The notes under the pieces are model-generated. The model did no database searches, had not been told where the DNA came from, and saw only the letters and a program-made list of their open reading frames with translations. A program made the translations under genes and the position numbers. Positions 5,729 to 41,479 of a stretch of DNA of 64,000 nucleotides are shown here, piece after piece. Each line of letters opens with the position of its first letter. Position 1 is the first letter of the stretch. Location of the stretch: positions 14,100,850 through 14,164,849 of the forward strand of contig NC_134029.1 of the NCBI RefSeq assembly GCF_964204645.1. The letters are read 5' to 3'. The DNA comes from Tubulanus polymorphus (lineage: Eukaryota > Animalia > Nemertea).

Positions 5729-7380
5729 TTAATAGACTACGCTAATGGTGTCGATTGTGATTCTGTTTACTGCATTCAGTCCGTTTGCATCCAGGTGTAT
5801 AAGTACATTGTTAAGAGTCCAAATATGAAGGTTTTGTTGAATCATGATTTCTTGGTTGAGGCGATCTATTAGCGAGTTTTTGAAATAAATTATAGTGTTG
5901 ATGCGGCCAGAGCCTTGTTCTAAATTGTAGTGATTTTTGTACAAAATGGATTGTGCAAGAAACAAAAGGTAGTTCGCGAGTGTGCGTTTGAAGAAATCTC
6001 TTTCTATTGTTTTAGTAATTCCTGTGTAGACGATGTCTTGAGTGATACTTATTGGTGTGTCTAGTATGCGTTGAATGATTGGTTGTATAGATGAATATAA
6101 TTGCTGTGCTTCTATGCATGAGAATTCTACATGGTCATTCGTTGCCGCGCGTCCACAAATTTTACAATTTGGATCAGTTTTTATTTTCCAAAGTACTAGT
6201 TTTGAAGCTGTTGCCAGAGTATTATGCAGTAATTTCCAATGAATATCACTAAATCGTCTATCAATATGTTTATTATAAACTTCATTCCAAATTTCCGGCC
6301 AGTTCAGATCAGCATTTAACATTTCAGTAATTTTGGTTTGCCCTATCGGTGTGATTTGATGGAGATTTTTTAATAATAGAATTCGATAAATTTGAGATGA
6401 TAAAAGTTTTCCTATAGTGCACACTATATTACCAAATTGTACATAGATTTTTGGTAATTCATCGGGATCTAAATTTTGGTCAGACAGAATTAGTTTCCAA
6501 TGTTACGGTATCGCATTGTATATACATGTGTGTTTAAATTTATTTGTTAATGGAATTTCGTTAAATGCTTTGTAGTTTCCACGATTATCGAATAGATGTC
6601 GTAGATTGATTATACCGTGATGTATGTATTCTGTGAAATTGGTTTTCTTGTTGAGCTTAATTTTTGGGTTGCCAAAAATAGGTTTTTGCAGAATTTCGGT
6701 AATGGTCTCAGTTGTAACTAGATTTTGTTGAAAAACTGTCCATGATTTTAATAAATGTCTGTAGTAGTCATTTGTAATGACTTTTTTGGGTATTTCATTG
6801 TGAATGATGTTTGAAATATTCCAGCCTGGGCCTAGATATTTTTGCAGATTGTAGTTGATAAGTGGTTTCCAGTGTGTTGGTTTTAGAGCGTGGTTTATTA
6901 TCATCTTAATTGCCTGTGTTTGTTGTCTGTATTTAATGTTGTGTAAGTCGAGACCTCCGTGTTCGATTTTTTTATGTATTATGTCTTTACTGACGAGGCG
7001 TTTTCCATTATCCCATAGGAAATTGATGATTTTTGGTTCAAAGATTTTGATATATTTATCTGGAATTGGAAAAATCTCGGAAGTGTACCATAATATAGGT
7101 AGTATAAAAGAGTTTATGACAACCTTTTTGCCATGTAAAGATAATTTAGTTTGGCGCCAAAGATTTATGATATTTTGAATTTTATTTATTTTCGGATTCC
7201 AGTTTAAATCATCAGTATTTTCATTGCCGAAATGAATTCCATAAATTTTCATTGATTTCTTCCAATTTAAGTCTAAAGGTTTATCGTTTCTAGCTTTCCA
7301 AGATCCTATCCACATACACTCAGTTTTATCTTTATTAATTTTTGCACCTGATGCTCTTTCAAACAGAGTTGAGGTTGTAA
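5729..7380 (-). mobile_element. 5'-truncated L1/Tx1-clade LINE, ORF2 C-terminal half (RT end, thumb, zf-RVT)
   Basis: LFERASGAKINKDKTECMWIGSW...LSLHGKKVVINSFILPILWY...GGLDL, then WKLLHNTLAT...CKICGRAATNDHVEFSC (CCHC zinc knuckle). Disrupted near 6430-6500. Confidence 0.85.
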
Positions 7381-9439
7381 GGACTTGTTGTTAGCAGTAC
7401 TCTCACTTCTGAAAAAAATTAAACCTACGTCTACTTGAAGAAAAGATTTCTGTCCGTCCAATAGAACGATAAATGTAATGGGTCAATGCAGGGTCAGTGG
7501 CCAGAGTTTGTGTGAGCTTCGACAGGAGGCAATCAAACCCTGGCAAGTGAGGATAGTAAGATTGCAAGGTGAATTTATCGAACAATGCCTCATTCTGGGT
7601 ACAGCAACCTTACAAGTATAGGGTACTCAATTCTGAATATTCTGTGCATTAATGAGTTATGCATGTATGGCCGCCATTTTTTTTCTCAAGCATAGGGGCC
7701 TACTCTGGTCAAGTGCAGTACCCAGAATTGAGTATACCCTGGATAAATGTGTCGAGTACTATACTTGGGTACTCAGAACTGAGTAAAATTAGATAAATTC
7801 GCCTGAGGAGTCAATTTCGAACATAAATAGAACAGGCCAGACATACTGGCTTTGCAATAAAATAAATTGCTATCAGCAAAATTTTGCTAAGCTGCTGTTA
7901 AGACAGCCAAAAGGAGTTTAATTTCTAAATGAAATTAATTGTCGTCATCCAATTTACTCTTATTAAAATTCAGAGAAAGATGAGAACGATTAATCTAATA
8001 GCATCTTGTACTGTGCTGAAGATTCCATGTTGATGCGCGGCGCAGTTTGCAATATTTACTGCGGAGCTTTGATGATAGCACAAAAGGCTCTTTTGCTTGC
8101 CAAGTGAAAGCATATTCGAACAAATCACGTATTTAAGCGTAATCCATTCTCGGAATCGTAGCGAGCAGAATTTTGAAATAGGGTCTCATAAAAATGTTTT
8201 CTGCATTTTTCACGAAAGTTAAATCGGGAAAATTTCAATTTTTATCAGCCAATCAGGAAGTTGTGTCTTCCCTGTGATTGGTTTATCTGAAAATATCAGC
8301 AGCTGTTCACGTATATTATCGCGATTTCATTACTGGCGCTTTTGCGCATGACGTCATGTATCAACACGCGACAATACTTCCGCGTTCGCTACGTGTTCGC
8401 TGATTGGCCCATTTACTGGGAAATTCCACAGAAGCCTAATGTGGTTTGTTACAAGCGCTGTGATTGGCCCGACCCGATTCTGGCATGGCTTTAGCTTAGT
8501 GGGTTCGAATCCCTTGACGGGTGAAGATGATGGATCCTATCAATATCTATTGAAACAAATAAGTTTCCCGGTTGGGCAGCCGCGGATATCTACAGTACCG
8601 GATGTGTTCCGGTTCGATATTTCGAGGTTTCTTTGAATTTTGGAGTGATATTGAAATCCGGTAAATACCAGCGGTAGATTGTGAAAACCCATTGCATGAT
8701 ATTTGTATTACTTAATCAACGAAAAGCGTCGGGGCCGCGCCAGGAGTTTTCGTGATTCAAGTAGCGCAATAGCCTACTTCTTCGAGTTCGTCCACCTCAA
8801 TTTTCACTCCGCCAATCTCTGACACGGCTCTGTCCCCGTCGGCGCTGTGATTGCACTTTCGTACCACCAAAATTTTTTATTTCTATATCAGGGAGGTCTG
8901 GAGAATAAAAAAGTCAAAATTTGGATATCACATAGGCCTGATTTCGTCGAATAAGTCGACCATGGTCGTTACGTTTCCGTACTTATTACCACCTAAAACC
9001 GTCTGAACAATTTTGTCACAACCAACATTTCGTTTACAGAAATCAGGTGTTCACGTGAATCCGTGGTATCGTCTACTGTTTTACTTACGGGTTTTATTTT
9101 AAGGTTTAAAATTGTATTTCAAGATCGATTTCTATGAAATCTTTAGTTGATTTGGTGTTTGGGAGGAATTTTTATTTGCTCTACAGAAAATTCATCCTTG
9201 ACAATTGCGCAAGGTTCGCGAAAAAAAGGTTTTACCAAATCGGGTGTATGACCTTGATATGCTAATTAGCCATGTGCCCGAATTGCAAATTCAATCAAAT
9301 TTTATTCTGCCAAAAAATGTTAAATACAATTCGCTTTCCGAGAGTTAATGGTATGCTGCATGGAACAAAGTTGTTTTGAGATGGGTCTTGAAGCTATTGA
9401 GGTCGAGAGATAACCATCTAGATAGTTCGTGAGAGTTCC

Positions 9440-10256: not shown

Positions 10257-11333
10257 ATTCCATATACACTGTATGTTATACGTAAACGAAGTCATTTAGC
10301 ATCAACGGTTTGTGCTGTACAGAGCTTGTCTTTTTGAGTCATTGGGGAAAACCCACTACCACTTTAATATTCATGATGAGTCATGCAGTTGCGTGTGATT
10401 ATTACGTGTGTATAAGGGGTGTACAATGCTGTGGTCGTTTCATTTGACAGATTTTCATAAAGTTTCTTTGGTTCAACTATTAAGGTTTCTTTCTTAAATA
10501 TTAATGCACCTGGACATGATGTGTTTCCATAACTCTTTATTCCTTTCTTTCCGAACAAACTTTCAACATAAAAAGTCATGGGAAAAGACCTTGGTGGCAG
10601 ATTCAGACGTCTCAGTACTGAGAAATTTTATAAAATTGCACTGAAATTCATATTTTTAAAACCTTGTTTTGTCTGCATTGGATACTTAACTTGCCCTTTT
10701 CAATGTCCATGGGTCCCTGGATCCGTTCCTAGATTTGCCCTTCTAGCTTATTTGAAATATGAAATTGATTGAAGGACAGGTCATTTATAATTTGTGAAGC
10801 TGCCGCGTCAAGCCCCATGGGGCTCTTGTTGTTGATTGAAGTCGAAGAAAAAAATTGGGCCTTCCTCTTATCAAGAGAGAAATTTAATTTCAAACATGCA
10901 TTATCATCCTTTAACTAGCATTCCTTTAAATCTTCAGGGAGGAAATTTTTCCGGATTTTTCAAGTCTGAGGTCATTTTTCTGGCAAAGCCTAAAAAAGAT
11001 GAGAAAATATGAGGGGGGGGGGTAGGAGGTTTATTCGAAAGTTTGTTGGTACCGGTGGCCGTAAAAGCGCTGCAGACCGGACCACATTTATTTCGAATGA
11101 AAATACAAACTCAACAGTCCGTGGACATTTGTACTTAGTTTTTGCACAGCAGTGTTCTAACCACGTGTTGAAAATGTTGAAATAATGAGACAGTTATGAA
11201 AATATTCTTTTTCCAAAATAGATTCTATGACAAAAATGCAGATGTTCAGAATTTGGAACCAACATGGGAATGGTTCATATCCGAAGTTATCACACTGTGT
11301 TGCAGATTGGAATAATTGATGTTAATCACATGT

Positions 11334-11407
11334 GAGTAATAGGGAATAAGTTGTTTCAGATCAGAGGTCGAGAGGTCGAATCTGAAACAACTTATTCCCT
11401 ATTACTC
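11334..11407. repeat. Perfect 28-bp inverted repeat with an 18-nt loop
   Basis: gagtaatagggaataagttgtttcagat - cagaggtcgagaggtcga - atctgaaacaacttattccctattactc. Confidence 0.95.
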
Positions 11408-11476
11408 TTAAAATATTCATATATATGAATATGAATAACCTCTAAAATCAATTTTAATAAAAAATTTGATATTAAA

Positions 11477-14400
11477 ATGGAAGCAAATAAGAAGTACTAC
11501 TGTCCAACATGTAAAATCAATATAGATAAATCCCAAAAAGCAAGACATGATGAAACTAAATCTCACTTAGAGAATAAATTGAAATTAGAATATAAAGATG
11601 ATGTATTAGAAACTAAATTAGATGAATTAAAGAATGAAAAAGAAATATATAAATGTGATACATGTAATCAATCATTCAGTAACAAAAGATATTATAAAGA
11701 ACATTTAAAATCTAAAAGTCATATTAGACATATTAATAATGATATTTTAGGTGAAGAATATTTTGATAAAGATATTGATAAGAAACAGAAGACATTTAAA
11801 AGAATAAAAAATAAATTAAACAATAAAAGACCATACATACATGGAAGATGTTACAAAATTTTTTTATTCATTCAATAATAAAAAAGAAATAGAAATAACC
11901 GAAGCATTCAAAAGTGATATTGGACCAGCTGCTATTGAATTTGAATTTCATAAAGGCAAAACATTAGAAGAAAATAAAAAACATTTAGAAAATATGAAAA
12001 TATAAAAATAATTACAGACGTAGAATATCCTAAGATTAGTATATCGGCTAAAGTTAAATTTTTTGACGCCTTATAAAACGTTACCATTATGAAACCTAAA
12101 CAATGTTAACCATTCAGCGTCATTTTACAAACGACAGCCGTAAATCGATGTGCAAAAGGTCACAGGTCTATGTGTACACAAACAAGCTATCTGGCAAAAT
12201 ATTATTGACATAGATGTAGAATGGCTTACTGTGATTATATAATGACCTATATTTGAACGTCGAAATGTTATATTGCATTGAATATCATTAGAAGACGTAT
12301 TGTAATAGTAAAGGATGTATGATTATATCAGAAGGGGCAGGCATAAATAGAAATGATAAGTAAATCGGATTATTCGGTTAAATGGCGGATGTATACACGA
12401 TTTGGAAGTCTGATATAAAAGTCAGACCCTGACGTGGGCATGCCGGTGGAATGACGAAGCTATCTACGATGTGTGTAGGGCCGGCGTGAATTTCATCAGC
12501 GGCTAAAAGCGGTCAATATGAAAATGTGTAAACATATAATTTCAATATTCAAACGTTTTAGAAAATATGTTTGATATTAGGAGTATGCAGGTTTCGTGAG
12601 ATTAGCAATTTATAATAGCATAGCTATCATATACGGCTCCGCGTCCTCTGATGGCATGTGTATTAGGTGACAATTCAATTGAATTCTTTATTGATCCTTA
12701 TTACATTGAAATTTCGGGATAGAATTCCCAAATTCAATAAATACAAATTTTAAAATAAATTAATACAACATACATGACACACGGGTAATTCATACAGAAC
12801 AACATAAGCATGTTATTTTAAATGACAATGTCTACTTCAACCCACCCAGACTCAAGACTCTAGGATATCGAGTGACAGCCAAACCCGTGGCCCGGGCCGG
12901 CTGGCTAGGCCACACGATATGCTCGAAGTCATGATGAAGCAGACATCAGAAGAGCTCGTTCTTCAACCATGGAGGCAATGAAGTTGCAGACCAGCTTAGA
13001 GGCATAAGTAAATGAAGTCGGTCGCAAGTTTGCGATCAATTATTGAGAATTTTCAATAAAAAAATTTAAACCACTACTAGAGTCGAAGACCCGCTGTATC
13101 ATCTACCCAATCGCCAAATCTCATCATTCCCCAAATTTCTTAAAACTTCGATTTCAAATTTGCAATTCCACATTAGCTTAGCCCAGAAATTATACATTTT
13201 TTTCGCAGGCGTCAAATAATTTTCTAAAATTAATTTTCTTGTTAAAATCTGAAGATAAACCAATATATAATATAATTCTCATTCACAACATATTATATCT
13301 AAACAACATATTGATGATAGATTAGATAAATGTTATAATGAAATAAAAAATAAGATAGAAGAGATATATTTTGAAGGATCAGGTTTAATATTTGATGTAA
13401 TAATATTTATGACTTTACATGTGTATAACACAAAATATAATAAGTTAACTAAATCGAAACCAACTGATGAAAATAATTTATCATATTTTAAAGATGATAA
13501 TATAAATGGATCAAGTTATATCAAATTACCATTTAAAACTAATGCTGTTATAAATGTACAAAATTCTGTTGATAAATGTTTTCTATGGTCAATAATTAGT
13601 TGCTTACATCCTGCAACTGATAATATTTGTAGAGTATCAAATTATAAACCATTTGAAAATAATTATAAGGTAGATAATTATCCTGTTAGCATTAAAAATA
13701 TCCCAAAAATAGAAAGAGATAATAATATAAAGATAAATGTGTTTGATTTAGTCAAATTACCAAAAACAAAAGGTAATAATATTAAACATTATACATTAGA
13801 ACCTTAATACCTATCAAAAGATTATGATTCAAATGGTTTTATAGATATATTATATTATGAGAATCATTATTTGTGGATTAAAAGAATTGATCTATTTTTC
13901 AAATCAGAAAATGATTTTGATAATAAAATATATCTATGTAGAAAATGTATAACTAAATTCAGAACTGAAAGTGCATTATTAAATCATAAACAATTATATG
14001 ATAATCATGATTATTGTAAAATAGTTTTACCAAATGAAAAGGATAAAATATTAGAATTCAAAAAATATGATTACAAGAATAAAGTACCATTTGTAATATA
14101 TGGTTATCTGTTATAATTGGTTATTCAGATCCTCTAATAACAAATGCTATTAAAAAGATCAAAGTGCTGCAGCTTTCGGGTTATATATAAAATCTGATTA
14201 TCCAGAACTAATTGAAAGTGAATATTATCATTATAGAAATGAAAATGTTATCAATCATTTTTGTGACTTATTAATTGAGTATGAAATAAAATGTAATGAA
14301 AAGTTGAATGAAAATAAAGAAATAATTACGACAGAAGAAGATAAAGAAGAATTTGAGTTTGCTGATAAATGTTATTATTGTGAAAAACTATTTAATTTTA

Positions 14401-16157
14401 AAGATAAAAAAGTTAGAGATCATGATCATTTGAATAGTAAATTTAGAGGAGCAGCGCATGAGAATTGTAACTTACAAGCTAAGAAAATTAACTTTGTTCC
14501 AGTAATATTTCATAATTTATCAGGGTATGATGCTTATTTATTTATCAAACAGCTATGTCATAAAATGGAAGAAATCAATAATGAAATAGAAAGATTAAAT
14601 CCAAATAGATCAAAAGATGTTGCTAATATACCAACTTATAAATTTAAAATGTTAGCTAAAACATCTGAAAATTATATATCTTTCCAATTTGGGTGTCTAA
14701 GATTTATAGATTGATATAGATTTTTAAGTAGTTCATTAGATAATTTATCAAAATCATTAGTTGATGATGAATTAAAAATATAAAAACAACAGTATCCAAA
14801 TAATGATGATTTTCAATTAATGAGATATAAAGGAGCAATTCCATATAGTTTTTATAAATCGCATAATAATAAGAACAATTCTATGATGAATTAAAAAATG
14901 AATATGTTTAATATGAAGTCTATAATAGAACATTGAATATTTGGAATCATTTTGGAATGAAAAATCATGGACAATTAGTAGATTTATATTTAAAATCAGA
15001 TGTATTATTATTAACTGATTTATTTGAAAGGTTTAGAGATGTAAATCTAAAATATTTCAATATTGATCCTTGTCATTGTTATTCTAGACAAGGTTTAACT
15101 TGGGATTGTGGATTAAAATTTACAGATATAAAAATGGATTTGTTAACAATTATAGATCTATTATTATTATTTAAAAAATCTATAAGAGGAGGAGTTTCAG
15201 GTGTATTAGGCAATAGATATTTCAATGTAAATGATAACCCTGGATATAAGTTATTATATATAGATGCAAATAATTTATATGGTTGGGCAATGATGGAACC
15301 ACAACCTTATGGAGTATTTGAAATAACTGAAGTTTTACAACATGAATAATGATAAATTTGATTGGAAGAATTCTAGATATTGCAGATGATTCAGAGACTG
15401 GTTACTTCTTTGTTGTAGATTTAGAATATCCTGAAGATAAAAATTTAAATCTAGAAATCTAGCATACTGTCCCGAACATAAAACTGTAACACATGAAGAA
15501 TTATCAAATTATCAAAAAAGAATTAAACCCAAAAATCAAATTCATACAGAAAAGTTAATGGTAACTCAGGAAGATAAATATAATGATGTAGTACATTATA
15601 GAATGTTAAAATTCTATTTGAATCAAGGAATGATTCTAAAAAAAGTACATAGGTATATTTCATTCAGTCAATCTAAATGATTAGAAAAATATATAGATTT
15701 TAACACCAGAGAACTAAAGCTAAAACTGATTTTGAGAAAGATTTCTTCAAGTTAATGAATAATGCATTCTATGGTAAGACCTGTGAGAATATTAGAAATA
15801 GAAATGATATTGAGTTAGTTAGCAATGGTAAAAGGATAAGGCATTTACAAACATATCCTAAATTCATTGGTAACAGAATAAAATTTAGCCGCTGTTAAAA
15901 TGAGAAGAACATCAATGAAATTTAATAAACCAATTTATGTTGGTGCTTCAGTTTTAGAAATATCAAAATTATTGATGTATGAATTCTATTATAACGTATT
16001 ACAACCTCATTTTGGAGAAAAGAATATAGAAATCTTATATATTGATACTGACAGTTACATATTAAAGATAAAAACTAATAACATAACAGATGATTTAAAA
16101 ACATTAAAACATCATTTTGATTTCAGTAACTATCCAAAAGCTCACGAATTGTTTAGC
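11477..16157 (+). pseudogene. polB: Protein-primed family B DNA polymerase with N-terminal C2H2 zinc fingers and an HNH/EndoVII-like insert
   Basis: CPTC..H and CDTC..HLKSKSH fingers; GSSYIKLP, DKCFLWSI, DHDHLNSKFRGAAHENCNL, FHNLSGYDAY, YLKSDVLLLTDLFERFR, SIRGGVS, YIDANNLYGWAM, KDFFKLMNNAFYGKTCENIR, YIDTDS. Many stops and frameshifts, an insertion at 12061-13241, and the C-terminus replaced by the BEL element. Confidence 0.92.
12061..13241 (+). mobile_element. Non-coding Helentron-type insertion splitting polB
   Basis: Composition shift; subterminal inverted repeat tttgacgcct (12062-12071) / aggcgtcaaa (13207-13216), then a short taatttt..aaaatta hairpin. Inserted in a T run; polB-like coding resumes after it. 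Confidence 0.6.
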
Positions 16158-19100
16158 ATCCCTCAAGAAAAAAGATCAAAGTGGAATGACTTTGTCCATA
16201 GAATATCTCGAGTAAGAGAACCAACGTTAATCGACTTGCAGCATTGGCTCAAAGACTGCATTGATGCGCACTTTGGTCCATATTCCGTTGCTAGCAAGTA
16301 AAAATGTAGCGATAGTCAGATAAGTAATTCTGGAACTTTAGTTCCTCGTGTAAGGCATACAACTCTTAATACGTCTCAATGTAATAACGGTAACGATTAA
16401 CAATGAGTTATTTGTTCAGAAAACCATCATCTTTCTAGGTGTAAATATTATATTGACAAATCAATTAATGATAGATATCAGTTGATTAGAAACAATCGTT
16501 TATGTCTTAATTGCTTATATCCTGGCCATTTCCTTAATTCATGTCCATCCAGTGGCGTCTGTAAGGAATTGGGATGCAGAAAGAAGCATCATACTTCTAT
16601 TCATCGGCCTCGTAATGATAAAAGTACTGTTAATAATGTTCAAACATCTAGTAACTGTACGGTGTTAATGCAGGTTGTAATACTCTGCAAGTTTATTTTC
16701 AGATAGTGCCGATTACAGCGCAGGGAAGCAACGGTCGCCGCGTGTCCACATATGCTCTGCTGGATTCTGCCAGTGATGTCACCTTTATTAATAATGAACT
16801 AGCAAATGATCTTGGTTTGCATCGTAAGAGACGCTTGCTAACGGTTAACACCCTCCATACTAGTACTTCGCATCATTCTCAGTGCGTTTCGTTTTCAATG
16901 CGTTCTCAGTCGGATCTCTATAGTGATGTTATTACTTCAAAAATGCATGGACAAATTACGGCAACTTCAATTGTTCATCTCAAAATATTAAAGCTCGTGT
17001 TTCTGATATGCAACATTTGAATGGTTTGGAGATTTGTGACGTATGCCTCGATCAGATTAGGGTATTAATAGGAGTGGATGTGCCAAAGGCTCACCTCCAA
17101 ATTGACGTAAAAGAAGGCGCTGCAGGGGAGCCTTTTGCTATTAAAATTTGCCTGGGTTGGTGTCTCTTTAGTCCTTCATATGTAGAATCTTTGGCTGAAT
17201 CTTTGGCTGGAATCTTTCGTCCAAGCTCACGTTAATTGTATAATTGCAGGGGATAAGGATTTAAACGAACAGGTTGAACGTTTTTGGTCCACTGAGTCTT
17301 TTGGTGTAGCCTGTCAAGGTCAGACAGGGTCAATTGAGGATCAAAGGGCCTTGTCTATCTTAGAAAATATTACAAAAATCGTTGAGGGGCACTATGAAGT
17401 GGGGATGCTTTGGAGGGATAAGAGTAGTACGCTTCCTTTTAATAAATCAGTTGCTGAAAGGAGGTTTGGAATTTTGGCTAGTCGTTTGTATAAAGATCCA
17501 AACATAAAAAAAGGGTATTCTGATACATTGAACGGTTACATCGCCGATGGTTATGCACGCAAGTTGACGTATGAGGACGCTTCAGTCGTTAGTCCCAGAA
17601 CATGGTTCATACCACATCATTGCGTGTTGAATGCAAAAAAGCCTGGTAAATTCAGAGTCGTATTCGACGCGGCTTCAAAATGTGAAGGAATTTCACGGCG
17701 GTTAAAGGCGGGTTTCATTTAACCAAATTCATGTCTTCAAGTAAAAACGTTTTGGCGCATATACCTGATATCGATCGTAATGATCCCACGTTAGGTTTAG
17801 AGTTCAATGAACTGTCAGTCGAGAGGGTCTTTGGTATTAAGTGGAATCCTGAAAATGATGTTTTTCTGTTTAGGCCTGACATTAAAGAAATTTCTCCTAC
17901 TAAACGCCGTAATCTTATCACTGTTTGTTCAATTTTCGATCCCTGTGGATATCTCGCTCCATTTACGTTTAAAGCGAAATGTTTAATACAGGATTTAAGG
18001 AGGTGCAATTTAGACTGGGATGATGAATTGACCGATAATTTGCTTGTTAGATGGCGCGCGTGGCAAGATGAGTTACCTTTTCTTGCAAATGTTAGTATCC
18101 CTCGCCACCACTTAGGTTTCTCTTCTAACGCAAAACATATTGAGTTACATCTGTTCTCGGATGCTTCAGAACGTGGCTTTGGTTCTGTTGCGTACCTGTG
18201 TTATACTTTTGATATTTCTATTCCTTGTTCAACAGCTGCATCAAAAACTCATTTAGCTCCAATTTAACAGAGATTAACGGTGCCAAAATTTGAACTACAA
18301 GGTGCAGTTATGTCCACATGTTTATCAGAGACGTTAAGGGCTGAATTAGGAATTTCATTTGTATTGATAAAGTATTTCTTTGGTCTGATTCAACCACTGT
18401 ATTGAGGTACATAAGCAATGAATCAAAGCGATTCAAGATGTTTGTAGCTAATAGAGTTACGGAGATTCGTGAATCTACTAATCCTAATCAGTGGAAATAT
18501 GTCCCTAGTAATTTAAACCCAGCAGATGACTGTACTTGCGGTCCTCCAGCTGGAAGTTTAACTATTGAACAAAGATGGTTACGAGGGCCAGAGTTTCTTT
18601 TTCAGACGACTGAAAAATGGCCGGATCAGCCGGTCTTAGGTTCCATTAGTGAAAACGATGATAACGTTCAAAGGTTCAAATATGTGAACAACACTGCTGT
18701 TTACGACAGTTCTTTACTTCTTAGTTTAGCCTTGAGGGTCTAATTACGCCTCAAGATGTTTCATCATTGATGTTGCTAAAACGCAAAACTGCATGGATTT
18801 TGCGAGCAGTAAGAAATTTTGCTGCTAAAATTCCCAGGCTGGGTATGACGGCTATAAAATCCAAATATTTCTTACCAGAGGAATTAAATGATGCAAAGAT
18901 GTGTTTAATTGTAAATGCGCAACGGGAATCGTACCCGAGCGAGTATAATTCGCTGCATCAAGGCATAGTAGCTAATAAGAGTAGGTTACGTTGTCTCGAT
19001 CCATTCATAGATGGTCCCTGTATAAGCATCAATTGTTACTCCCATTTGGTCACCATATTACGAATCTAATCGTGAAACGTGAACATTTATTGTCATTGCA

Positions 19101-20783
19101 TTCTGGGCCTGAACATGTCATAGCGTCTGTACGACAAAATTATTGGCCTATCAAGGCTCGAATTGTGGCGAAATCAGTCATTCGCAAATGTTTTACTTGT
19201 TGGCGACGAACGGCAATGCCTAAGATACCTTTTATGTCTGATTTACCGGACTTTCGTTAACTGCGTATTCTCACCCATTTGAATATACAGGAGTTGATTA
19301 CCTTGGACCTCTGTTAGTAAAAAGAGGTTGTTCTGTTATTAAACGATGGGTATGTCTATTCACTTGCCATGTGACTCGGTCAGTTCTACTTGAATAAGCA
19401 GATTCCCTCGAAACTGATATTTTCATGTTTGTTCAACGTAGTTTTATTAATAGACGTGGTACGCCTGGGGAGTTGTATAGTGACAATGGAACCAATTTCA
19501 TTGGTGCTGAAAGGGAATTAAAGTCTTCTCTTTCAGAATGGAATCAGTCATTCATATCGAATTTTTTAGTAGAAAAAGGCACGAAGTGGATTTTCATGCC
19601 GCCCAACGCGCCTCACTTCGGTGGCGTATGGGAACTATTAGTTAGGTCGGTTAAGAGAGCTTAAGTCAGTACTTGGGGAGCAATGTGTTTGTGAAACTGT
19701 GTTACGTACTAGCCTTATAGAGGTGGAGGGTGCCATCAACAGTAGACCCCTTACATATAACAGCTCAACGATCTAACACCAATAACCCCTAATCATTTTC
19801 TCCATGGTGGAGCATCTTCAATAATCTCATTTGGTAAGTTTGAAAACTAAGAGATCAATAGCCGTAAAAGGTGGCGGCAGTGTCAGGTTCTGGCGGACCA
19901 TGTGTGGGATGATGGATCGTTGAATACTTGCCTTCCCTCACTGTAAGAGGTAAGTGCACTGATGAAAACTCTAATGTAAATATTGGAGATTTAGTAATTA
20001 TCGTTGATAAGAATATCCCAAGGGGACAATGGTCGTTAGGTAGGGTAACAAATACTATGCCCGGTAAGGATGGACGAGTAAGAGCCCTTAAGGTCAAAAC
20101 AAGAGGTTCTGAGTACATACAACCTGTATCTAAAATTTGTGTATTAGAGGAAAATCGCTGACAAAATTATTATTAGATAATAACCGTATCATGGGTACAT
20201 GTGCTGTCACATGAGTGACTAAGCGTTGTAAAATTTTGCCAACATATGTATTGTTGCCAAGGAGGTGCTATGTTAGAAATTAGCTTTAATTTATAATTAG
20301 ATTATTAAAAGATTTTGTCATATAAGAAATTATTCATTAGCTATGGTTTTTTTGTATTTGTTATGATTTGTAATTTCATACTTTCTTCGTGTTTTTTACA
20401 CTCTGCAAGTTTTGATATGGATTATAGATTATGAGTTGTGCATTTCCGTGTAGGCGAATGCCTTATATCATGCCTTAACGGCTCAGTAACTTTTGGCATA
20501 TATAATGTTTGATCAGAAATCTGTGTATTCAGTGTCAGCTCTACATTGTCGCACAGTGAACATGAAATTGTGAGTAGCCTCTCTTTAAATATGATTATAT
20601 CAATTATGTCAAATGCTATAATTTGTGGCACATGATGTAAAAAGGAGCATAATTATTGTTGCAGGAATGTTTATTTGTTTATCCTTTGTAGCAAACCATG
20701 AATACATAATAAATAATGTGTTTGAAACGTTCGCTGTAGTTGATTTAGATCGTTGCCAGTCGCCGGTCAGCCAAGGCACGACA
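16158..20783 (+). mobile_element. BEL/Pao LTR retrotransposon, 5'-deleted and decayed (gag, protease, partial RT, RNase H, integrase, 3' LTR)
   Basis: Gag knuckles CLNCLYPGHFLNSC and CKELGCRKKHHTSIH; protease ALLDSASD; WFIPHHCVLNAKKPGKFRVVFDAA; LHLFSDASERGFG; FVANRV; NPADDC; integrase SDNGTNFIGA, PPNAPHFGGVWE; GQWSLGRV. Confidence 0.92.
20271..20783 (+). repeat. Putative 3' LTR of the BEL/Pao element
   Basis: Purine tract aaggagg precedes TGTT at 20271; aataaa near 20708; ends in ACA at 20783, where AT-rich Polinton sequence resumes. No 5' LTR is available for comparison. Confidence 0.6.
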
Positions 20784-20905
20784 GTTGCAATTTAGATGAA
20801 TACTTAAAGTTTAAAAGAGAATAAGCAAAAGAGAATGAGATTATGAAAAGGATTCTAACATGTTAATCGGCTTTAATTCAATTTTAATAAAAATATGTAT
20901 AATAA

Positions 20906-21252
20906 ATGGAGAGTAATCAAGCACACAGTGAGAACAACAAATCATTTCTAGATAGAATAAAAGATATCACAAATGCTAAATCAGAGGATTATATATTTAA
21001 AAAACTAAATGAACTAACAATTCATAAGAAATATTTAATTACAAATATTGATACAGTTTCTAATAAATATGGAGATAAATTAGTTTAGAATATGAAGGAT
21101 TAAAGGGAAATAAATATAAATTCAGAACATATTTACCAGATAGATTGAATAGATTATCTAGTGAAGATTTAGAAGAATTATGTTCTGGTGATTTCTATTT
21201 CATATACAAAGGTAAGAATGAAAAAGGGCACCATGATATAGATTTTGAATAA
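20906..21252 (+). pseudogene. Small Polinton ORF with one frameshift, possibly OB-fold/ssDNA-binding-like
   Basis: FKKLNELTIHKKYLITNIDTVSNKYGDKLV, continuing in another frame as LEYEGLKGNKYKFRTYLPDRLN...FIYKGKNEKGHHDIDFE*. The fold is an inference. Confidence 0.45.
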
Positions 21253-21266
21253 AATATGTAAAATAA

Positions 21267-21986
21267 ATGGTAGAATTAAAAGAATATAGAATATATGTTG
21301 ATTCTAGAAAACAATTAAATTCTAAATCTCATAATTTACTTGTACAATTAGATAAAGAATTTAAGAATTGTGTAGGTTTTAGTATATCGGATAAAACTTT
21401 CGAACATAGAGGTTTTGCAATTTATATGAGAAATAAAAATAAATGGTTTCATCTATTTTTAAAACCAGGATTATATAATTTAGAATCATTAGCGCAGGAA
21501 ATTAATAGAAGAGCTCGGTTGAAAATCGGGAGTACTGATGAATTTGGAATTAAATTTATTAAAATTGATAGTTCTAATAAAATAAGAATAAAGTTATCTA
21601 CTGAACAAAATAAATTTATGGTAAACAAACTAATAGCTAAAATGCTAGGAATTAAACCGCATATTGTTACTGGAAACGCAGAAGGTAGCTCAAATATAAT
21701 ACCTTTTACACACTTTTATATTTATTGCAATTTAATTTATCCTACAAAAACTTTCGAAGCAACTTAAGATACAATTTGTAATTCTAGTATATTAAATATT
21801 TTACCACTAAAAAATGTTAAACAATTTGGAACGCAAATAAATTATAATTTAGCTGAATGTGATTTCAAACCATGCATTCCACAATTTAATAATTTTAGAT
21901 TAGAAATAAGAAATCATAATGGATATTTAATTGATTTGAATAATTTTTCTGTGATATATGAATTAGTTATAAGATGTAGAGAGTAA
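21267..21986 (+). pseudogene. Minor capsid (penton, single jelly-roll)-like gene with one in-frame stop at 21765
   Basis: IYVDSR at the N-terminus, LKPGLYNLESL, LIAKMLGI, FYIYCNLI, and in-frame read-through SILNILPL...RLEIRNHNGYLIDLNNFSVIYELVI, a pattern typical of Polinton pentons. Confidence 0.7.
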
Positions 21987-22063
21987 TTTTTTTTTATATA
22001 CATAAATATGAATATAACAGTAGGAGTATATGTTTTGGATTTGATTTTAAACGTGAGAAAGAA

Positions 22064-22363
22064 ATGAAATTTGATATTAATGATGTAATAACACATATTA
22101 AAAATATTGCATTTTCTAATGAAACAACATTTGAATATGAAACAACAATAAATAAAGAAACTTTTGATGTAGGAAAGATTACTGATTTAATTAGAGAGTC
22201 TTTAAGATTTTATGAATTAGATGAAGATTTTATCATTGATGATATTAAAAGAATAATAACTGAAATATATGAAAATAAAACGAATAATATTATGAATGTT
22301 GAAATAATTATAACTAAGTTAACTAAATATTTTGAAGATAGTATTTTTTTAATTAATAAATGA
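22064..22363 (+). CDS. Polinton hypothetical acidic protein (99 aa)
   Basis: Intact ORF within the compact co-oriented array; its stop overlaps the next ATG. Confidence 0.5.
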   Translation: MKFDINDVITHIKNIAFSNETTFEYETTINKETFDVGKITDLIRESLRFYELDEDFIIDDIKRIITEIYENKTNNIMNVEIIITKLTKYFEDSIFLINK

Positions 22364-22567
22364 GTGATTATAAGTGAATAATAAAATGGTGCCTTACTAT
22401 CAGTGGGAACTGTTGGTTATATAATGGTATCAAAAAAAGTATTTAAAATGGGAAGTGTTAACATTGATAGATTTGATATCAATGATATTTTAAAATTAAC
22501 GTCAGCAGTTACTTTATCTAATTTAACTATTGATTATTTGGAAAAACAAAAATATATTCCTATATAA
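22360..22567 (+). pseudogene. Small amphipathic Polinton/adintovirus-type protein, disrupted near its start
   Basis: TAAATG start, then NGALLSVGTVGYIMVSKKVFKMGSVNIDRFDINDILKLTSAVTLSNLTIDYLEKQKYIPI*. Not in the ORF track. Confidence 0.45.
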
Positions 22568-22591
22568 ATGCGTAATTTTTTTACTAAATAA

Positions 22592-23014
22592 ATGGCATCT
22601 GCAATTATAACTATTATAGGATCAGCAATTGTTAACCCTTTAGCATTTACAGGTGGTGGGTATTTATTTAAGCATATTGATAAAAATGGTTCATTATCAG
22701 AACAAAAAAGACATAACTTAGCATTAGAAAAATGTAATAAAGCTGCAGAAGAATATAGAGAAAAAAGACAAAACTATATGGATTACATCAATAAAGAATT
22801 ATATAATCAGAAAATTTCACATAGAGATTTTCAATCAGTCGATGATGCAATGAGTTTATATAACGCAGTAACAAATAAAGAAAAATTACATCTATACAAA
22901 CCCAAATTATCAGATTATTATACCCCAAGTAGGGAACAGAGGAAATATGAAATAATTTGGATTTTAGGCGGAACAGTTATTGTTATATTTGTAGCATATA
23001 AATTTACAAATTAG
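22592..23014 (+). CDS. Polinton/adintovirus-type small protein with hydrophobic N- and C-termini (140 aa)
   Basis: MASAIITIIGSAIVNPLAFTGGGYLF...EQKRHNLALEK...PKLSDYYTPSREQRKYE plus a C-terminal TM segment. Intact ORF. Confidence 0.65.
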   Translation: MASAIITIIGSAIVNPLAFTGGGYLFKHIDKNGSLSEQKRHNLALEKCNKAAEEYREKRQNYMDYINKELYNQKISHRDFQSVDDAMSLYNAVTNKEKLHLYKPKLSDYYTPSREQRKYEIIWILGGTVIVIFVAYKFTN

Positions 23015-23983
23015 TATTTTTTTTTCTAAATAAATGGATGATAAAATTGATAATGTTGATATTATTCATGATATAAATGAAACTAAATTAAAAATATAGC
23101 TGCAAAGCAGCGATAACGGGTTTTCTGCTGTCTTAGAATCCTGTTCATCGGTGGATTTCGACAAAGCATTTGATAAGGCATTACATCAGCCATTACTACC
23201 TAAACAGGCTATTAGGAAACAGTATCAATGATAGGTCGCCCAAATGGCTCAGCAGTTATCTCTGAACGAAAACTTATAGCCAAAATCAACGGAACGCCTC
23301 ATCTTGGAATAAGTCGGTCTAACTAGTGGAGTCACGCTAGGTAGTATCCTAAGTCGTCTACTGTTTAATGTCCTGACAAATGACATACACAGTAATCCAA
23401 AATATACCGCAAATCAATTGTGACAAAGTATTGATGCGAATGACCTATTTAGTTCATCGACCATGTACTGAACACTATTATTGTGCCCCAGCATTTGGGG
23501 TCATTCTACTTGAACCCCAACATTCAATATGTCCACCATATTCTGGTGATGATGTAGTCATTTTAATTTTTCTGCCAACTTCATTTCTTCTTTCATATTA
23601 ATCTAACATTAAACATCATTAAGTATGCGTCCCCTTATTGAAATTAGGTTAACTATCTCAATATATCGATGTAACTAGGAAGACCTTATTTAAAATGTCG
23701 AGATTTTTATGTCGACTTTTTGCGATATTGTCTCAATAAATTGCCATACGTATCACGACATTTTAGCTAAAGGAGTGATAATTATGTCGACGGTTCGCGG
23801 TTATGTTGCGATACAGACGTCGACATTGGTGAAAGGCGTGATCCGTATAACGATTTATCGTGATATTAACACGATATATCGACTTAATTATGTCGATAAA
23901 TCACGATATATCACGTTTGTTCGACATAATTTCGTCGTGATAAAAGGTCGCGACGGTTTTGTATGGGTCCCATATATACGGAA

Positions 23984-24414
23984 GTACGGAAGCGATAAAG
24001 GGCCTCGAGTTGTCGCGTTCCAACTCGACAAAGTCGCCATATTTATGTCGACATATCGCGATATATTGCTTCAAGTCGACATGAATATGTCGACATATTG
24101 TGACGTTATGACGACATATTTCGTTTTCTCAACCATTTTCCTCACAACAATTCAACATATTCATGACGACTTGAAACTCAGTTGCCATATAACTGGCGTC
24201 CTCATCTTACATTTCGACGTGTCTTCAAATGACGGCTTGTCCCGTGGAAAATGGGCGAAAAAGCGAAATTTGTCGTGAAAAGTCGCGTGTGTAGACACAT
24301 TCATGTCGACTTGACGCGATATATCGCGATATGTCGACATAAATATAGCACCTTGTCGAGTTGGAAGCGACAACTCCAGGCCCTTTATCGCTTTTGACAT
24401 ATAAGCTTCCGTAC
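23984..24414. repeat. MITE-like foldback with about 160-bp inverted arms
   Basis: tacggaagcgataaagggcctcgagttgtcgcgttccaactcgac... versus ...gtcgagttggaagcgacaactccaggccctttatcgctt. A second copy lies at about 42543-42958. Confidence 0.75.
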
Positions 24415-24619
24415 ATCTTTAGAAAAAGAAATCATATATGTGATCTTTCATTAAGTAGGATCACTTGAATGATCGCTTTTATATCACTTTAAAAAAAAAC
24501 GAATCTGCCAAAATGACCTTAATGTTCGACACTATATCAGATTAATCGACTTCAAAATAGGCGAAAGCATAAGTCTTTATTACGTTATTAATTGGCCTAA
24601 TTATTCAAAAGCTAATAAA

Positions 24620-25450
24620 GTGGGCGACAAAACCAAAAAAATTAATTGTCGCGGGCGATAAAACCAAAATAATCAATTGTCGCGGGCGATAAAACCAAAA
24701 TAATCAATTGTCGCTGGCGATAAAACCAAAATATTGAATTGTCGCGGGCGACAAAACCAAAAAAATGAATTGTCGCTGGTGATAAAACCAAAATCTTGAA
24801 TCGTCGCGGGCGACAAAACCAAAAAAATGAATTGTCGCTGGCGATAAAACCAAAATCTTGAATTGTCGCGGGCGACAAAACCAAAATATTGAATTGTCGC
24901 GGGCGACAAAACCAAAATAATAAATTGTCGCGGGTGATAAAACCAAAATAATGAATTGTCGCGGCGATAAAACCAAAATCTTGAATTGTGGCGGGCGACA
25001 AAACCAAAATATTGAATTGTCGCGGGCAACAAAACCAAACTAATGAATCGTCGCGGGCGATGAAACCAAAATAATGAATTGTCGCGGGCGATAAAACCAA
25101 AATAATGAATTGTCACTGGCGATAAAACCAAAATAATGAATTGTCACTGGCGATAAAACCAAAATATTGAATTGTTGCAGGCGATAAAACCGCGACAAAA
25201 AAAAATTGTCACGGGCGATAAAACCAAAATAATGAATTGTCGTGTGCGACAAAACCAAAATAATGAATTGTCACGGGCGATAAAACCAAAATAATGAATT
25301 GTCACGGGCGATAAAACCAAAATATTGAATTGTTGTGGGCGACAAAACCAAAATATTGATTTGTCGCAGGTGACAAAATCAAATTAATGAATTGTCGCGG
25401 GCGATGAAACCAAAATAATGAATTGTCGCGGGCGACAAAACCAAAATTAT
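24620..25450. repeat. 31-bp minisatellite array (about 26 units)
   Basis: Unit aaaaccaaaataatgaattgtcgcgggcga(t/c), head to tail with no spacers. Confidence 0.95.
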
Positions 25451-27030
25451 TGTTTTGTCGTGTTATTTTAATTTTGTCGTTTTGTCATAATGTCGCCCTC
25501 ATTTGCATATACGTGTTTTTTTTACGCATGGCCCTTATCAGCCACCATACTAAAGCCTTAAGGTCGTGTAAAACATCGATAAACACTTCAAGCGACAAAG
25601 CGAACTCTCCTTTCCCCCACAGCAAACGCTTAACCTAGTAGAGGCTACTAGCCTATGTAGGCCTATGTATATGCGTAGGCCTAACATCCGGACAGATTGG
25701 TCGTAGGCCTATTGAATAACAACCCACCTAAATATCGTAAATTTTGTTTTGAAGTTCAATCCAATGAGTCCGTTAATAAACGCAACAATTATACTGTGTT
25801 TGTTTGAGACAGTAAAGCTCAGTACCTGTAGGCCTAAAGCCGCGTCAAACTCCATAAACACTTTAAGCGACACAGCGAACGATCCCTTTCCCCAACAGCG
25901 AATGCTTATTCAGAATGTCAAGTGTGAGTCCAGCATACGGAAAGGATTGTGTTATATACTTGTATTTAGTTAATACCTTGTGCATTTGACAATGATCGGT
26001 ATGTACTGTAGGAAATATAGAGTATTGATGGTATTGATATAGAGGTTGAAGCCTGCGGCCGAATAAAGTAATATATTCTTTTATCTTGATACCTCGTCGA
26101 CATAACAGCTTTTCTCCGCTATATCTCTTCGGCGTGTTTCGTTTAGGCCTACGACTCCCCGGTACACTTATGATTTATCTTAGTAAATACACGGTTAATT
26201 TGATAAAGAAAAATAGCTATTGCTAAACTAACTGCTTGACGCCCGCAGCCAATTCACTGGTAGTAATAAATTAATTTGTACTCGATTTGATTCTCATGAT
26301 GAGGTGAAACTTGCAGCTGATCCCCGGAACGACGATGTAGTGACACACGTCGATTCGTCGATGTTTACGGCTCGACAGTGCTTTTAAAATCTAAAGTAGT
26401 AAATTTCGTGTATATCGGTAATACGATTTGATGAGAAAAATGGGCTATTGTTAAAATTAGTTTTTAAAAACCGCGACAGAATGTGCAATCTTTGGGTAAT
26501 AAATTTGTTAATTTATGCTTGAATTGATAACTGATGTGACAAGAAACGTGCGGTAGATTTCGGAAAGAGGACTTAGAAAAACATGTCGGCTCTTTGAATG
26601 GGGCTCAATTTTCAATGTTTACGGCCCGACAGTGCTTTTGTAACGATGATTCTTCAAAATACGCACGGGGTATTTGTAGATCGAAGTGAACTGAATGATA
26701 TCAGACGGATTGTATCGACAACAGCGGCAAGGTAACAAAGCCTTTGTTCTTTTAGTAAAATTAGTGTGGAAGAAAATAATAATAATAATAATCACGCGGA
26801 TATCAATAGGGTTTTCTGTGAAATAACAGAAAACCCTAATTATATTTGGAAAAACAAATATTAGAATTTGAAAATGATTTAAAAGTTAAAAAGAAAAAAT
26901 ATTTAAAAAGCAAAATTATATATTATCTTATTATTAGTGGTTCAGTTACAATAAGTTCTGTAATAACATTTTTAGCCATATTCAGACCATTAACTCCTTT
27001 AGCTATATCAATTGGTGTGTTAGGATTTCT

Positions 27031-39796: not shown

Positions 39797-41037
39797 TCAT
39801 TCTTTATCGGTGCAGTGAATATGATCTTTCCATGTTAAATTACGATCAAAAATTACACCTTCAAATTTCGCACTATCAACACGATTAATGATTTTATCTG
39901 CAAGAAAGATATTAAGTCCTAGGTGGTCCCTATTGCCAAATACCATATAAAGAGTTTTATCTATATTTACAGATAATCTATTGGCTCTAAACCACTGTAA
40001 TAAATTTGATAGTTCCGAATTTAATGTATGCTCTAATTTTTTTGGGTCTCGATCACTGTAAAAAAAAGTTGCTGTCATCGACAAATAGTATTGATTGTAA
40101 AAGCCTACAAGAAGATGGACAGTCATTGATATAAATAAGAAACAGCAGGGGACCTAAAATAGACCCCCGTTTCACTCCGGAAGTAATAATTTTGTGGTTA
40201 GATAAACTGTTATTAAACTTTACAGCTTGTTTCCTATCCAGGAGATTATGAAACCAACTTAAGGGGGAACCACAGATACACAACATTTCAGGGTCGTCGT
40301 TATTATATACATTCTGCCAGTTACTGGCCAACAAAGAGCGGGAGAAATGTTCAATTGACCGCAAGTTAATATCACGGACCTGCGTTTTCGACGGGGATTT
40401 GTAGGGTTTGGTCTCATACACACCGTGAATGGCGGCAAAAATTGGGTAATGATCTGTGAGATCAGCTAAAAAAACGCCGCTAAAAAACGTCGATAAAGTT
40501 AATTAAAATGTTATCAATAACTGTTGCAGAGTGCTCGGTGACACGAGTAGGTAAAGTGATGAGGGGCAAAAAGGAATTAGAAATCGCAGTATTCATAAAA
40601 TTCTCACTTAAGTAATTTTTGCCAAACTTACTGTAATCGCCAATGAGAATAACATTTAGACCGTTAACCTCTTGGGCAAATACATCAAATTCACGGTATA
40701 GAACGCCAATAATTAGCTTACGTTTAGAATTTGCAGTTGTTTCAATAAATAAGGACTCAGCTAGATTTAAGTCATCCCTGATCTTAAAAGATATAGCATT
40801 ATTGATCAAAAGACCGACTCCACCCCCTCCCTTATTTAGTCTACTTCGGAAGACACTAGTGAAGCCAGGTAAACGAAACAAAGATTCATTTGGTACATTG
40901 GAGTCTGTCCAAGTTTCCGATAAACAAATTATACTAAAATCATGGTTAATTATATGGATATATTCAGCCAAACTATCAAAGTTTTTTTCTGGCACTGCGT
41001 ACATTAGAATGGAATACACTAAAGGGCACTCCATCAC
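39797..41037 (-). mobile_element. CR1/L2-type LINE fragment, endonuclease joined to the RT C-terminal part (internally deleted)
   Basis: IICLSETW, GGGVGL, PTRVTEHSATVIDNI; then SGVKRGSILGPLLFLIYIND, LFVDD, WFRANRLSVNIDKT, GVIFDRNLTWKDHI. Confidence 0.85.
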
Positions 41038-41479
41038 TAGATTTCAGATTGAAATGCGTAGAAGTATAGTAACTATATCAACTGAAATGAACAAAACAAA
41101 AGATCTATGGGCAGAAAGTCACTGTCATTAAAATTCACCGAATTTCACACACTTCAAAACTTTCGGGCTACTTCTGAATTCAATAAATTTCTGTCACTTC
41201 TCAAATTTTACTGCAGAAATGAGTAGGCCTCAAATCAAGTCATGGTTTAACTATTCTAATCAACATTTCATGAAACTTTTAAAAGAAATTGAAAATATTA
41301 TTTACCCTTCTATGTGCAAGTTTTTGTGAGGCCGATCTTTTCGAGGTTGATGGGGTAATCATCGTGGACGGAGTGAGTTGTGGCTGAAAGTCATCAGTTT
41401 TGCGCTTGAAAATTGTTGGGATGGCATCAGCTTTCAGAGCTCTTTTTTGTTTGTAGCCCATGGAAACTGCTACCGAGTT

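Follow-up and report, generated by a model that had tools for sequence, protein, structure and literature searches.

Poxvirus late promoter-like gene starts in a Polinton lineage present in the genome of the nemertean Tubulanus polymorphus

Results

A decayed Polinton fragment and its genes

The window examined here is a stretch of 64,000 nucleotides from the nemertean Tubulanus polymorphus (assembly GCF_964204645.1, contig NC_134029.1, positions 14,100,850 to 14,164,849 of the forward strand). It holds a decayed fragment of a multi-copy Polinton, extending from position 11335 to about 23090, whose gene starts are the subject of this report. An initial annotation of the window, made from the letters alone, had described the element as more AT-rich than its surroundings, and this is the case (23% GC versus 36.5% and 37.1% in the flanks). 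The left end (11335..11407, + strand) begins with AG, and 28 nt of the terminus recur in inverted orientation at 11380-11407. We found 479 genomic reads with loose ends before position 11335, with an agreement of 0.37 among their flanks. As these reads leave position 11335 into unlike sequence, the element occupies many different insertion sites in the genome. While the left AG end is present with many flanks, the right end is missing in this copy.

The polB gene (11477..16160, + strand) encodes a decayed protein-primed DNA polymerase B (pPolB) with matches to Pfam zf-met, Endonuclease_7 and DNA_pol_B_2. The product has N-terminal zinc fingers and an endonuclease VII-like insert; the gene contains several stops and frameshifts, and its last part is missing. 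The DNA_pol_B_2 match (14912-15346, E 5.7e-5) is below the curated cut-off, and the protein groups with full pPolBs in a tree. A secondary 1.18-kb insertion lies within polB (12062..13242, no strand assigned); it is not found in other copies, with 166 DNA reads joining 12061 to 13243. The gene is also cut by a BEL/Pao retrotransposon (16161..20784, + strand, ends approximate; Peptidase_A17 at 17731-18264), on which read depth drops about 25-fold. In run X5, depth was roughly 350-1200 on the Polinton versus about 21-40 on this insert, which may itself be present in more than one copy. Scaled to two other host repeats of the window, the Polinton was covered roughly 5-12 times more deeply in run X1 than in X2 and X5. 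Depth summed over a contig does not measure copy number, and we take the difference only as a lead for extrachromosomal amplification.

An array of genes on the + strand (20880-23090) comes after the BEL/Pao insert and is ended by a high-copy repeat. The following coordinates include the promoter-like site in front of each gene. The small gene with ATG 20906 (20881..21252) is broken and possibly encodes a single-stranded DNA-binding protein (SSB). The nearest named atlas cluster to its orthologue in L002, a relative described below, was phi29 SSB (score 0.87), and we regard this assignment as a lead only. The gene with ATG 21267 (21242..21986) is putatively penton-like and has a stop at 21765-21767. 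That with ATG 22008 (21987..22363) is broken and has no assigned function, and that with ATG 22360 (22344..22567) is broken by a stop at 22375-22377, its orthologues being 73-76 aa in length. The gene with ATG 22592 (22576..23014) is the only whole gene in this copy, the rest having stops or frameshifts or being cut off. Its 140-aa product carries a C-terminal hydrophobic segment and has 9 homologues with 67-78% identity. Only the first codons remain of the gene with ATG 23034 (23017..23090), which is cut off by the high-copy repeat. Loose read ends were found at 23091-23092, where this gene breaks off, and its orthologue gave a weak match to SLATT.

Motifs at the gene starts of the window

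The initial annotation had pointed out recurring letters at these starts, and the motifs were found as described. Five array starts (ATG 20906, 21267, 22360, 22592 and 23034) read ATAAATG, and polB starts with TAAAATG at 11477. Runs of T precede three of the array starts (T7 at 22344, T7 at 22576 and T9 at 23017), lying 6, 6 and 5 nt before TAAATG. We also identified a sixth array start, absent from the initial annotation, at ATG 22008. It consists of a T9 run, 7 nt and TAAAT-ATG (TAAATATG), and its orthologues start with TAAATG. In four array starts, TAAAT is thus preceded at 5-7 nt by a run of T7-T9. Over both strands of the 64 kb there are 3 matches to the pattern T7-N4-8-TAAATG, all in the array, and 0/3000 shuffles of the array reached 3 sites at word size 2, 3 or 4.

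Concerning the other starts, a block ATTTT(A/G)N1-2TAAAA, said to be shared by those at 11477, 20906 and 21267, is present on the + strand at 11451, 20881 and 21242, exactly in front of these three. It also occurs once on the - strand (26761), and its array shuffle P was about 0.016. At the same three starts AATAA is found 11-12 nt before TAAA. The polB site (11451..11479, + strand) has an A-rich core, a spacer and a TAAAAT initiator over the ATG, reading AATAA, 12 nt, then TAAAATG. Among about 2100 genomic reads of this site, some of which may derive from 20881 and 21242, where the sites are similar, the variants listed were at 11466, 11468 and 11469, within the spacer; none was listed in the core or initiator.

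The bare motif is frequent in this DNA, ATAAATG being present 6 times inside polB (13225-16160), and enrichment within the window is modest (TAAATG at 5/7 starts versus 13/154 other ATGs, Fisher p 1.8e-4). AATAAA is contained in all five ATAAATG starts. An extra TAAATG at 22565-22591 is formed by the upstream stop and opens a 7-codon frame ending right before ATG 22592; this is probably due to chance.

Conservation in five relatives

Five metagenome contigs, designated L002 to L006, were reached through alignment of the homologues of the 22592 protein and display the same gene order. Five array starts of the window match the starts of their orthologues in these contigs, indicating that they are real gene starts. 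Among mechanically called starts in the five contigs, TAAATG was present at 33/37, versus 34/369 out-of-frame ATGs (p 3e-30). The 42 homology-checked starts of the window and the five relatives comprised 38 TAAATG, 2 TAAAT-ATG, 1 TAAATA-ATG and 1 TAAAATG. A purine occupied position +4 in 41/42 of them, and position -3 was T in 33/37 starts of L002-L006.

The T-run is held at a fixed distance. In TAAATG starts with a run of at least five T, the spacer was 5-8 nt in 22/23. In 19 co-oriented gene pairs, the distance from T-run to TAAATG was 5-8 nt, whereas that from T-run to the upstream stop ranged from -12 to 696 nt; the standard deviation of its position was 0.9 nt relative to the downstream start versus 189 nt relative to the upstream stop. 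As the former distance is fixed and the latter variable, the T-run belongs to the start.

L002 carries a rve-chromodomain integrase, an A32-like ATPase and a deoxynucleoside kinase, and its capsid model (predicted local distance difference test score, 90.7) matches double jelly-roll capsids. The rve integrase, A32-like ATPase and double jelly-roll capsid by which Polintoviricetes are recognized are thus all present in L002, encoded by genes that lie outside the truncated window copy. No match to an adenovirus-like maturation protease was found in L002, a partial contig. Its deoxynucleoside kinase gene is located at 10340-10981 on the - strand, with 3 close homologues at 60-67% identity. The integrase had seemed to be an exception with an early promoter at ATG 7588. 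This idea was dropped since ATG 7588 is internal; the gene has its true start, a TAAATG, at 7141, and contains a stop at 7516-7518. An atlas search with a 206-aa protein of L002 gave nothing above 0.81. Hydrophobic segments were present in 5/17 L002 open reading frames (ORFs) versus 4/43, 5/57 and 6/155 in controls, hinting at a membrane-containing virion.

Scans of viral sequence with the 22592 protein, the capsid and a capsid alignment gave no confirmed viral relatives, and searches of phage collections gave no match. One candidate relative, L001, proved to be a phage.

TAAATG starts in L011 and in control elements

Loci sharing the polymerase motifs were collected from viral contigs in two motif scans, which yielded 30 and 13 of them. 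Pooled start counts took 31/44 loci; L001, L009, L022, L028, L030, L031, L032, L036, L039-L041, L043 and L044 were left out, being phages, unrelated elements, or contigs that are chimeric, decayed or short, and those counted separately had 0-2 TAAATG starts. L045, L046 and L050-L054 are repeats of contigs already in the set. In one of the loci from the scans, L011 (38% GC), TAAATG was present at 7/7 starts with a background of 0/95; these include polB, integrase, ATPase and back-to-back divergent genes. Other scanned loci had 0-2 TAAATG starts each. The pooled controls gave 0/57 (a group with CAGT, see below), 1/43 (a group in which TAAA is near the ATG), 10/154 (15 other loci) and 0/8 (two contigs with distant capsids), and four further control loci gave 1/35. 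The pattern (38/42) is lineage-specific and is not produced by AT content or by an AAAATG Kozak-type background, against which the initial proposal was to be checked. L015, at 22% GC, has TAAATG at 1/11 starts, indicating that AT content is not the cause of the pattern.

Other elements display other motifs. CAGT, which we take to be the arthropod initiator for RNA polymerase II (Pol II), was found within 40 nt of 24/57 starts in L013, L014, L024, L026 and L038 versus 3/37 in L002-L006, and is rare (3/42) at the homology-checked starts. In L012, L025 and L037 (and L007 and L008), 34/43 and 6/8 starts have either TAAATG or a TAAA no more than 6 nt from the ATG, with A at position -3; judging from this motif, these contigs may constitute a second helper-type or initiator class. 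Position -3 was A in 35/43, 31/57 and 88/154 control starts.

A PolB tree of 21 rows was constructed with a quick method (L047, L048 and L055 not included). The window sequence is on a long branch, and the branching order in its set, including a sister relationship of the window and L011, was not settled.

Comparison with poxvirus promoters

Statements on published work, here and below, refer to the available portions of the cited texts. The vaccinia late promoter has a T-containing core, about 5-7 bp and TAAAT(G/A) over the start site (PMC5294985). The core lies about 6 nt upstream of the initiator in late promoters versus about 11 nt in those of intermediate genes, and the initiator of G8R is TAAAAT (PMC12722222). 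The likeness to poxvirus late promoters seen earlier extends to these details: TAAAT(G/A) lies over the starts in the window and its relatives, and a T-rich core is found about 5-7 bp upstream, at the spacing given above. By their sequence, the T-run class fits the published late promoter, and the polB site fits the intermediate description. The suggestion of two promoter classes can be retained in part; a second class, with an A-rich core, may plausibly comprise polB and the penton-like gene, but is unstable across orthologues.

The runs had also been compared with TTTTTNT, the poxvirus early terminator. This does not agree with their position, which tracks the downstream start and not the stop. 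The poxvirus early core AAAANTGAAAA was present within 1 mismatch in only 3/42 starts, and early signals are thus not a feature of these genes. Counts of T5NT and AATAAA in coding DNA do not separate nuclear from cytoplasmic expression, since controls behave alike, and depletion of splice donors likewise did not discriminate the lineage from controls. The baculovirus-type late motif, DTAAG, was found within 60 nt of 13/42 starts; this was judged, without a null, to be near chance, and the motif was rejected. A scan of viral contigs for a T-run with ATAAATGG gave 3 loci, which were phage-like.

Other features of the window

Palindromes, imperfect or perfect, are present in non-coding DNA of L011 (4657-4840), L002 (9173-9340) and the window (11334-11407), those in L011 and the window just upstream of polB. 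Two 31-nt tandem arrays of opposite orientation (24493-25543 and 41478-42466) lie within 95%-complementary arms (23404-24040 and 42895-43536), and are probably two copies of one repeat element. Decayed pieces of long interspersed nuclear element and long terminal repeat retroelements, recognized by zf-RVT and endonuclease matches and integrase-like sequence, are found at 5729-7315, 40480-41034 and 62443-63812, all on the - strand.

Discussion

The TAAATG pattern is real, lineage-wide and specific. Its promoter architecture is conserved across the orthologues of five relatives and absent from most elements with the same polymerase, and the element that carries it is found at many insertion sites. 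Taking the form of the sites together with the analogy to known virophages, we consider it rather probable that the T-run/TAAATG sites serve as promoters for a viral RNA polymerase of the poxvirus type, which a helper would supply as Cafeteria roenbergensis virus (CroV) does for Mavirus. Of the pox-like machinery initially proposed, the part resting on late-promoter architecture, which is lineage-specific, has been strengthened, and the part resting on early terminators has been lost. Consistent with use as promoters, the polB spacer varies in genomic reads, with no listed variant in core or initiator. No match to an RNA polymerase or late-factor family was found in the 15 ORFs of L002 and the 7 of L011, so the polymerase would come from the helper.

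T at position -3 is a poor context for translation initiation. Transcription would start inside TAAAT, and slippage, which at such initiators yields a 5' poly(A) leader (PMC6211774), would add a leader that replaces this T. From the shape of the promoters, both expression and packaging of the element would take place in the cytoplasm of cells infected by the helper. Entry into the chromosome would be brought about by its own, packaged chromodomain-rve integrase, as in Mavirus with CroV.

A different explanation is nuclear transcription by host Pol II, the T-run and TAAATG being a core promoter or a translation signal of the hosts that is specific to the lineage. Germ-line integration in many copies with a chromodomain integrase would agree with this, as would the grouping of the window PolB with CAGT-type elements and the failure of the coding-sequence tests to separate the lineage from these elements. 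However, a TATA box at these sites would place the transcription start past the ATG, the T at -3 is opposite to the A of controls, and CAGT is rare. The motif also holds at 20% and 38% GC and not in the AT-rich L015. We regard this explanation as unlikely.

A pox-like polymerase might also come from a source other than a poxvirus, such as a large DNA virus of a different kind, a linear sister element akin to pGKL2, or genes carried by the unseen part of the element. Yeast linear elements have an upstream motif, ATNTGA, which was found in only 3/42 starts. Although L002 and L011 are incomplete, their ORFs gave no polymerase or late-factor match, and the T-core with a spacer of 5-8 nt fits the poxvirus description specifically. 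In favour of this source, the polymerase that yeast linear elements themselves encode works from a TAAAN initiator with slippage (PMC6211774), and TAAA lies within 6 nt of the ATG in related groups. We consider such a source improbable, more so than transcription by the host.

Finally, the view that the motif is a by-product of packing or RNA processing (a TAA stop next to an ATG, an AATAAA poly(A) signal, a splice acceptor or AT-richness) has on its side the AATAAA and intragenic ATAAATG counts of the window and some T-runs that closely follow a stop, but is largely refuted and very improbable, as an upstream stop is found within 4 nt of only 5/33 TAAATG starts, AATAAATG (16/33) and TATAAATG (14/33) are about equally common at these starts, divergent starts without an upstream gene carry the motif too, T-runs keep their distance from TAAATG and not from the stop, and a splice-acceptor AG is found within 15 nt of the ATG in 1/33.

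Returning to transcription by a helper-supplied poxvirus-type polymerase, a number of points weigh against it. Neither a helper virus nor transcription of the element was observed, though the analysis included no search aimed at either. A core of at least five T is present in only 1/7 L011 starts, despite the initiator. A-rich and T-rich classes swap between orthologues of the SSB-like, penton-like and MNI genes. The window PolB falls within a set (99% in the Shimodaira-Hasegawa-like approximate likelihood ratio test, SH-aLRT) together with CAGT-type, TAAA-type and L011 elements, and the tree is compatible with one or several origins of TAAATG. Depletion of T5NT in coding DNA of L002-L006 (z -2.7, -2.3) is equalled by L029 (-3.8) and L023 (-2.6), and AATAAA is not depleted in CAGT-type controls either. 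The best viral match of the L002 kinase model, the deoxycytidine kinase of turkeypox virus (29% identity), is weak and unspecific, a Megaviridae kinase being second, also with 29%. In addition to the TAAAN initiators of yeast linear elements, TAAAT is present in ranavirus polB promoters, and coral polintoviruses, which may be another lineage, are reported to be expressed (PMC11131425).

Among known systems, Mavirus and CroV are the closest parallel. In Mavirus the CroV late promoter precedes all genes and the element is induced by CroV, virophages sharing the late promoter of their helper (PMC6723459). Like the present element, Mavirus is an integrating small double-stranded DNA virus with a pPolB, a rve integrase and a double jelly-roll capsid, and has one conserved motif before all genes. 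The present element differs in its animal host, in a motif of poxvirus-type TAAATG rather than the TCTA of CroV (TCTA within 30 nt of 15/42 starts versus TAAA(A)T in 42/42), and in being known from sequence alone. Vaccinia intermediate and late promoters and the initiator of yeast pGKL1/2 share with it an A/T core, a fixed spacer and TAAA(A)T over the start codon, but vaccinia and pGKL1/2 encode their own polymerase, whereas none was found in L002 or L011.

The entomopoxvirus-associated Polinton-like viruses AHEV_PLV1/2, CBEV_PLV1 and Ca_PLV1 have been proposed as the first poxvirus hyperparasites (Barth et al. 2024, PMC11296320). They are likewise Polinton-type elements, with poxvirus hyperparasitism proposed in animals, and differ in that they come from occlusion bodies; no integrase was detected in AHEV_PLV1 and Ca_PLV1, and the other two have a primase-helicase and a tyrosine recombinase. 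The words promoter, motif, TAAAT and transcription do not occur in the main text of that study, which contains no promoter analysis. Animal Polintons or Mavericks described as 'adintoviruses' (Starrett et al. 2021, PMC8502044) share the pPolB, rve-chromodomain integrase, A32-like ATPase, double jelly-roll capsid, AG terminus and many genomic copies. The present lineage differs in its TAAATG starts, in the deoxynucleoside kinase of L002 and in that no maturation protease was found in the partial L002. The words promoter, helper and cytoplasm do not occur in the main text of Starrett et al., and promoters are not mentioned in the available text of a 2026 framework preprint on Polinton-like viruses (10.64898/2026.06.19.733378) or of the coral polintovirus study (PMC11131425). 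Likeness of promoters has been used to infer a helper in protists in a Halocafeteria preprint (10.64898/2026.07.28.741278). In the literature searched, which was mostly open-access, we found no description of animal Polintons with promoters of the poxvirus type.

A promoter signature makes testable the mode of expression of animal Polintons and their possible dependence on helpers, known from the virophages of protists. With it, Polintons could be sorted simply from their sequence into those transcribed by the host and those transcribed by a helper. If the proposal is true, the start motif of a Polinton (CAGT, TAAA-n or TAAATG) would tell its transcription system and hence point to an undiscovered helper virus; in the present case, a pox-type virus of this invertebrate is predicted. 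As a more tentative extension, which we hold to be possible rather than probable, some germ-line Polintons of invertebrates may be inherited poxvirus virophages, silent until a pox-type infection activates their late and intermediate promoters, and may serve as a heritable antiviral defence.

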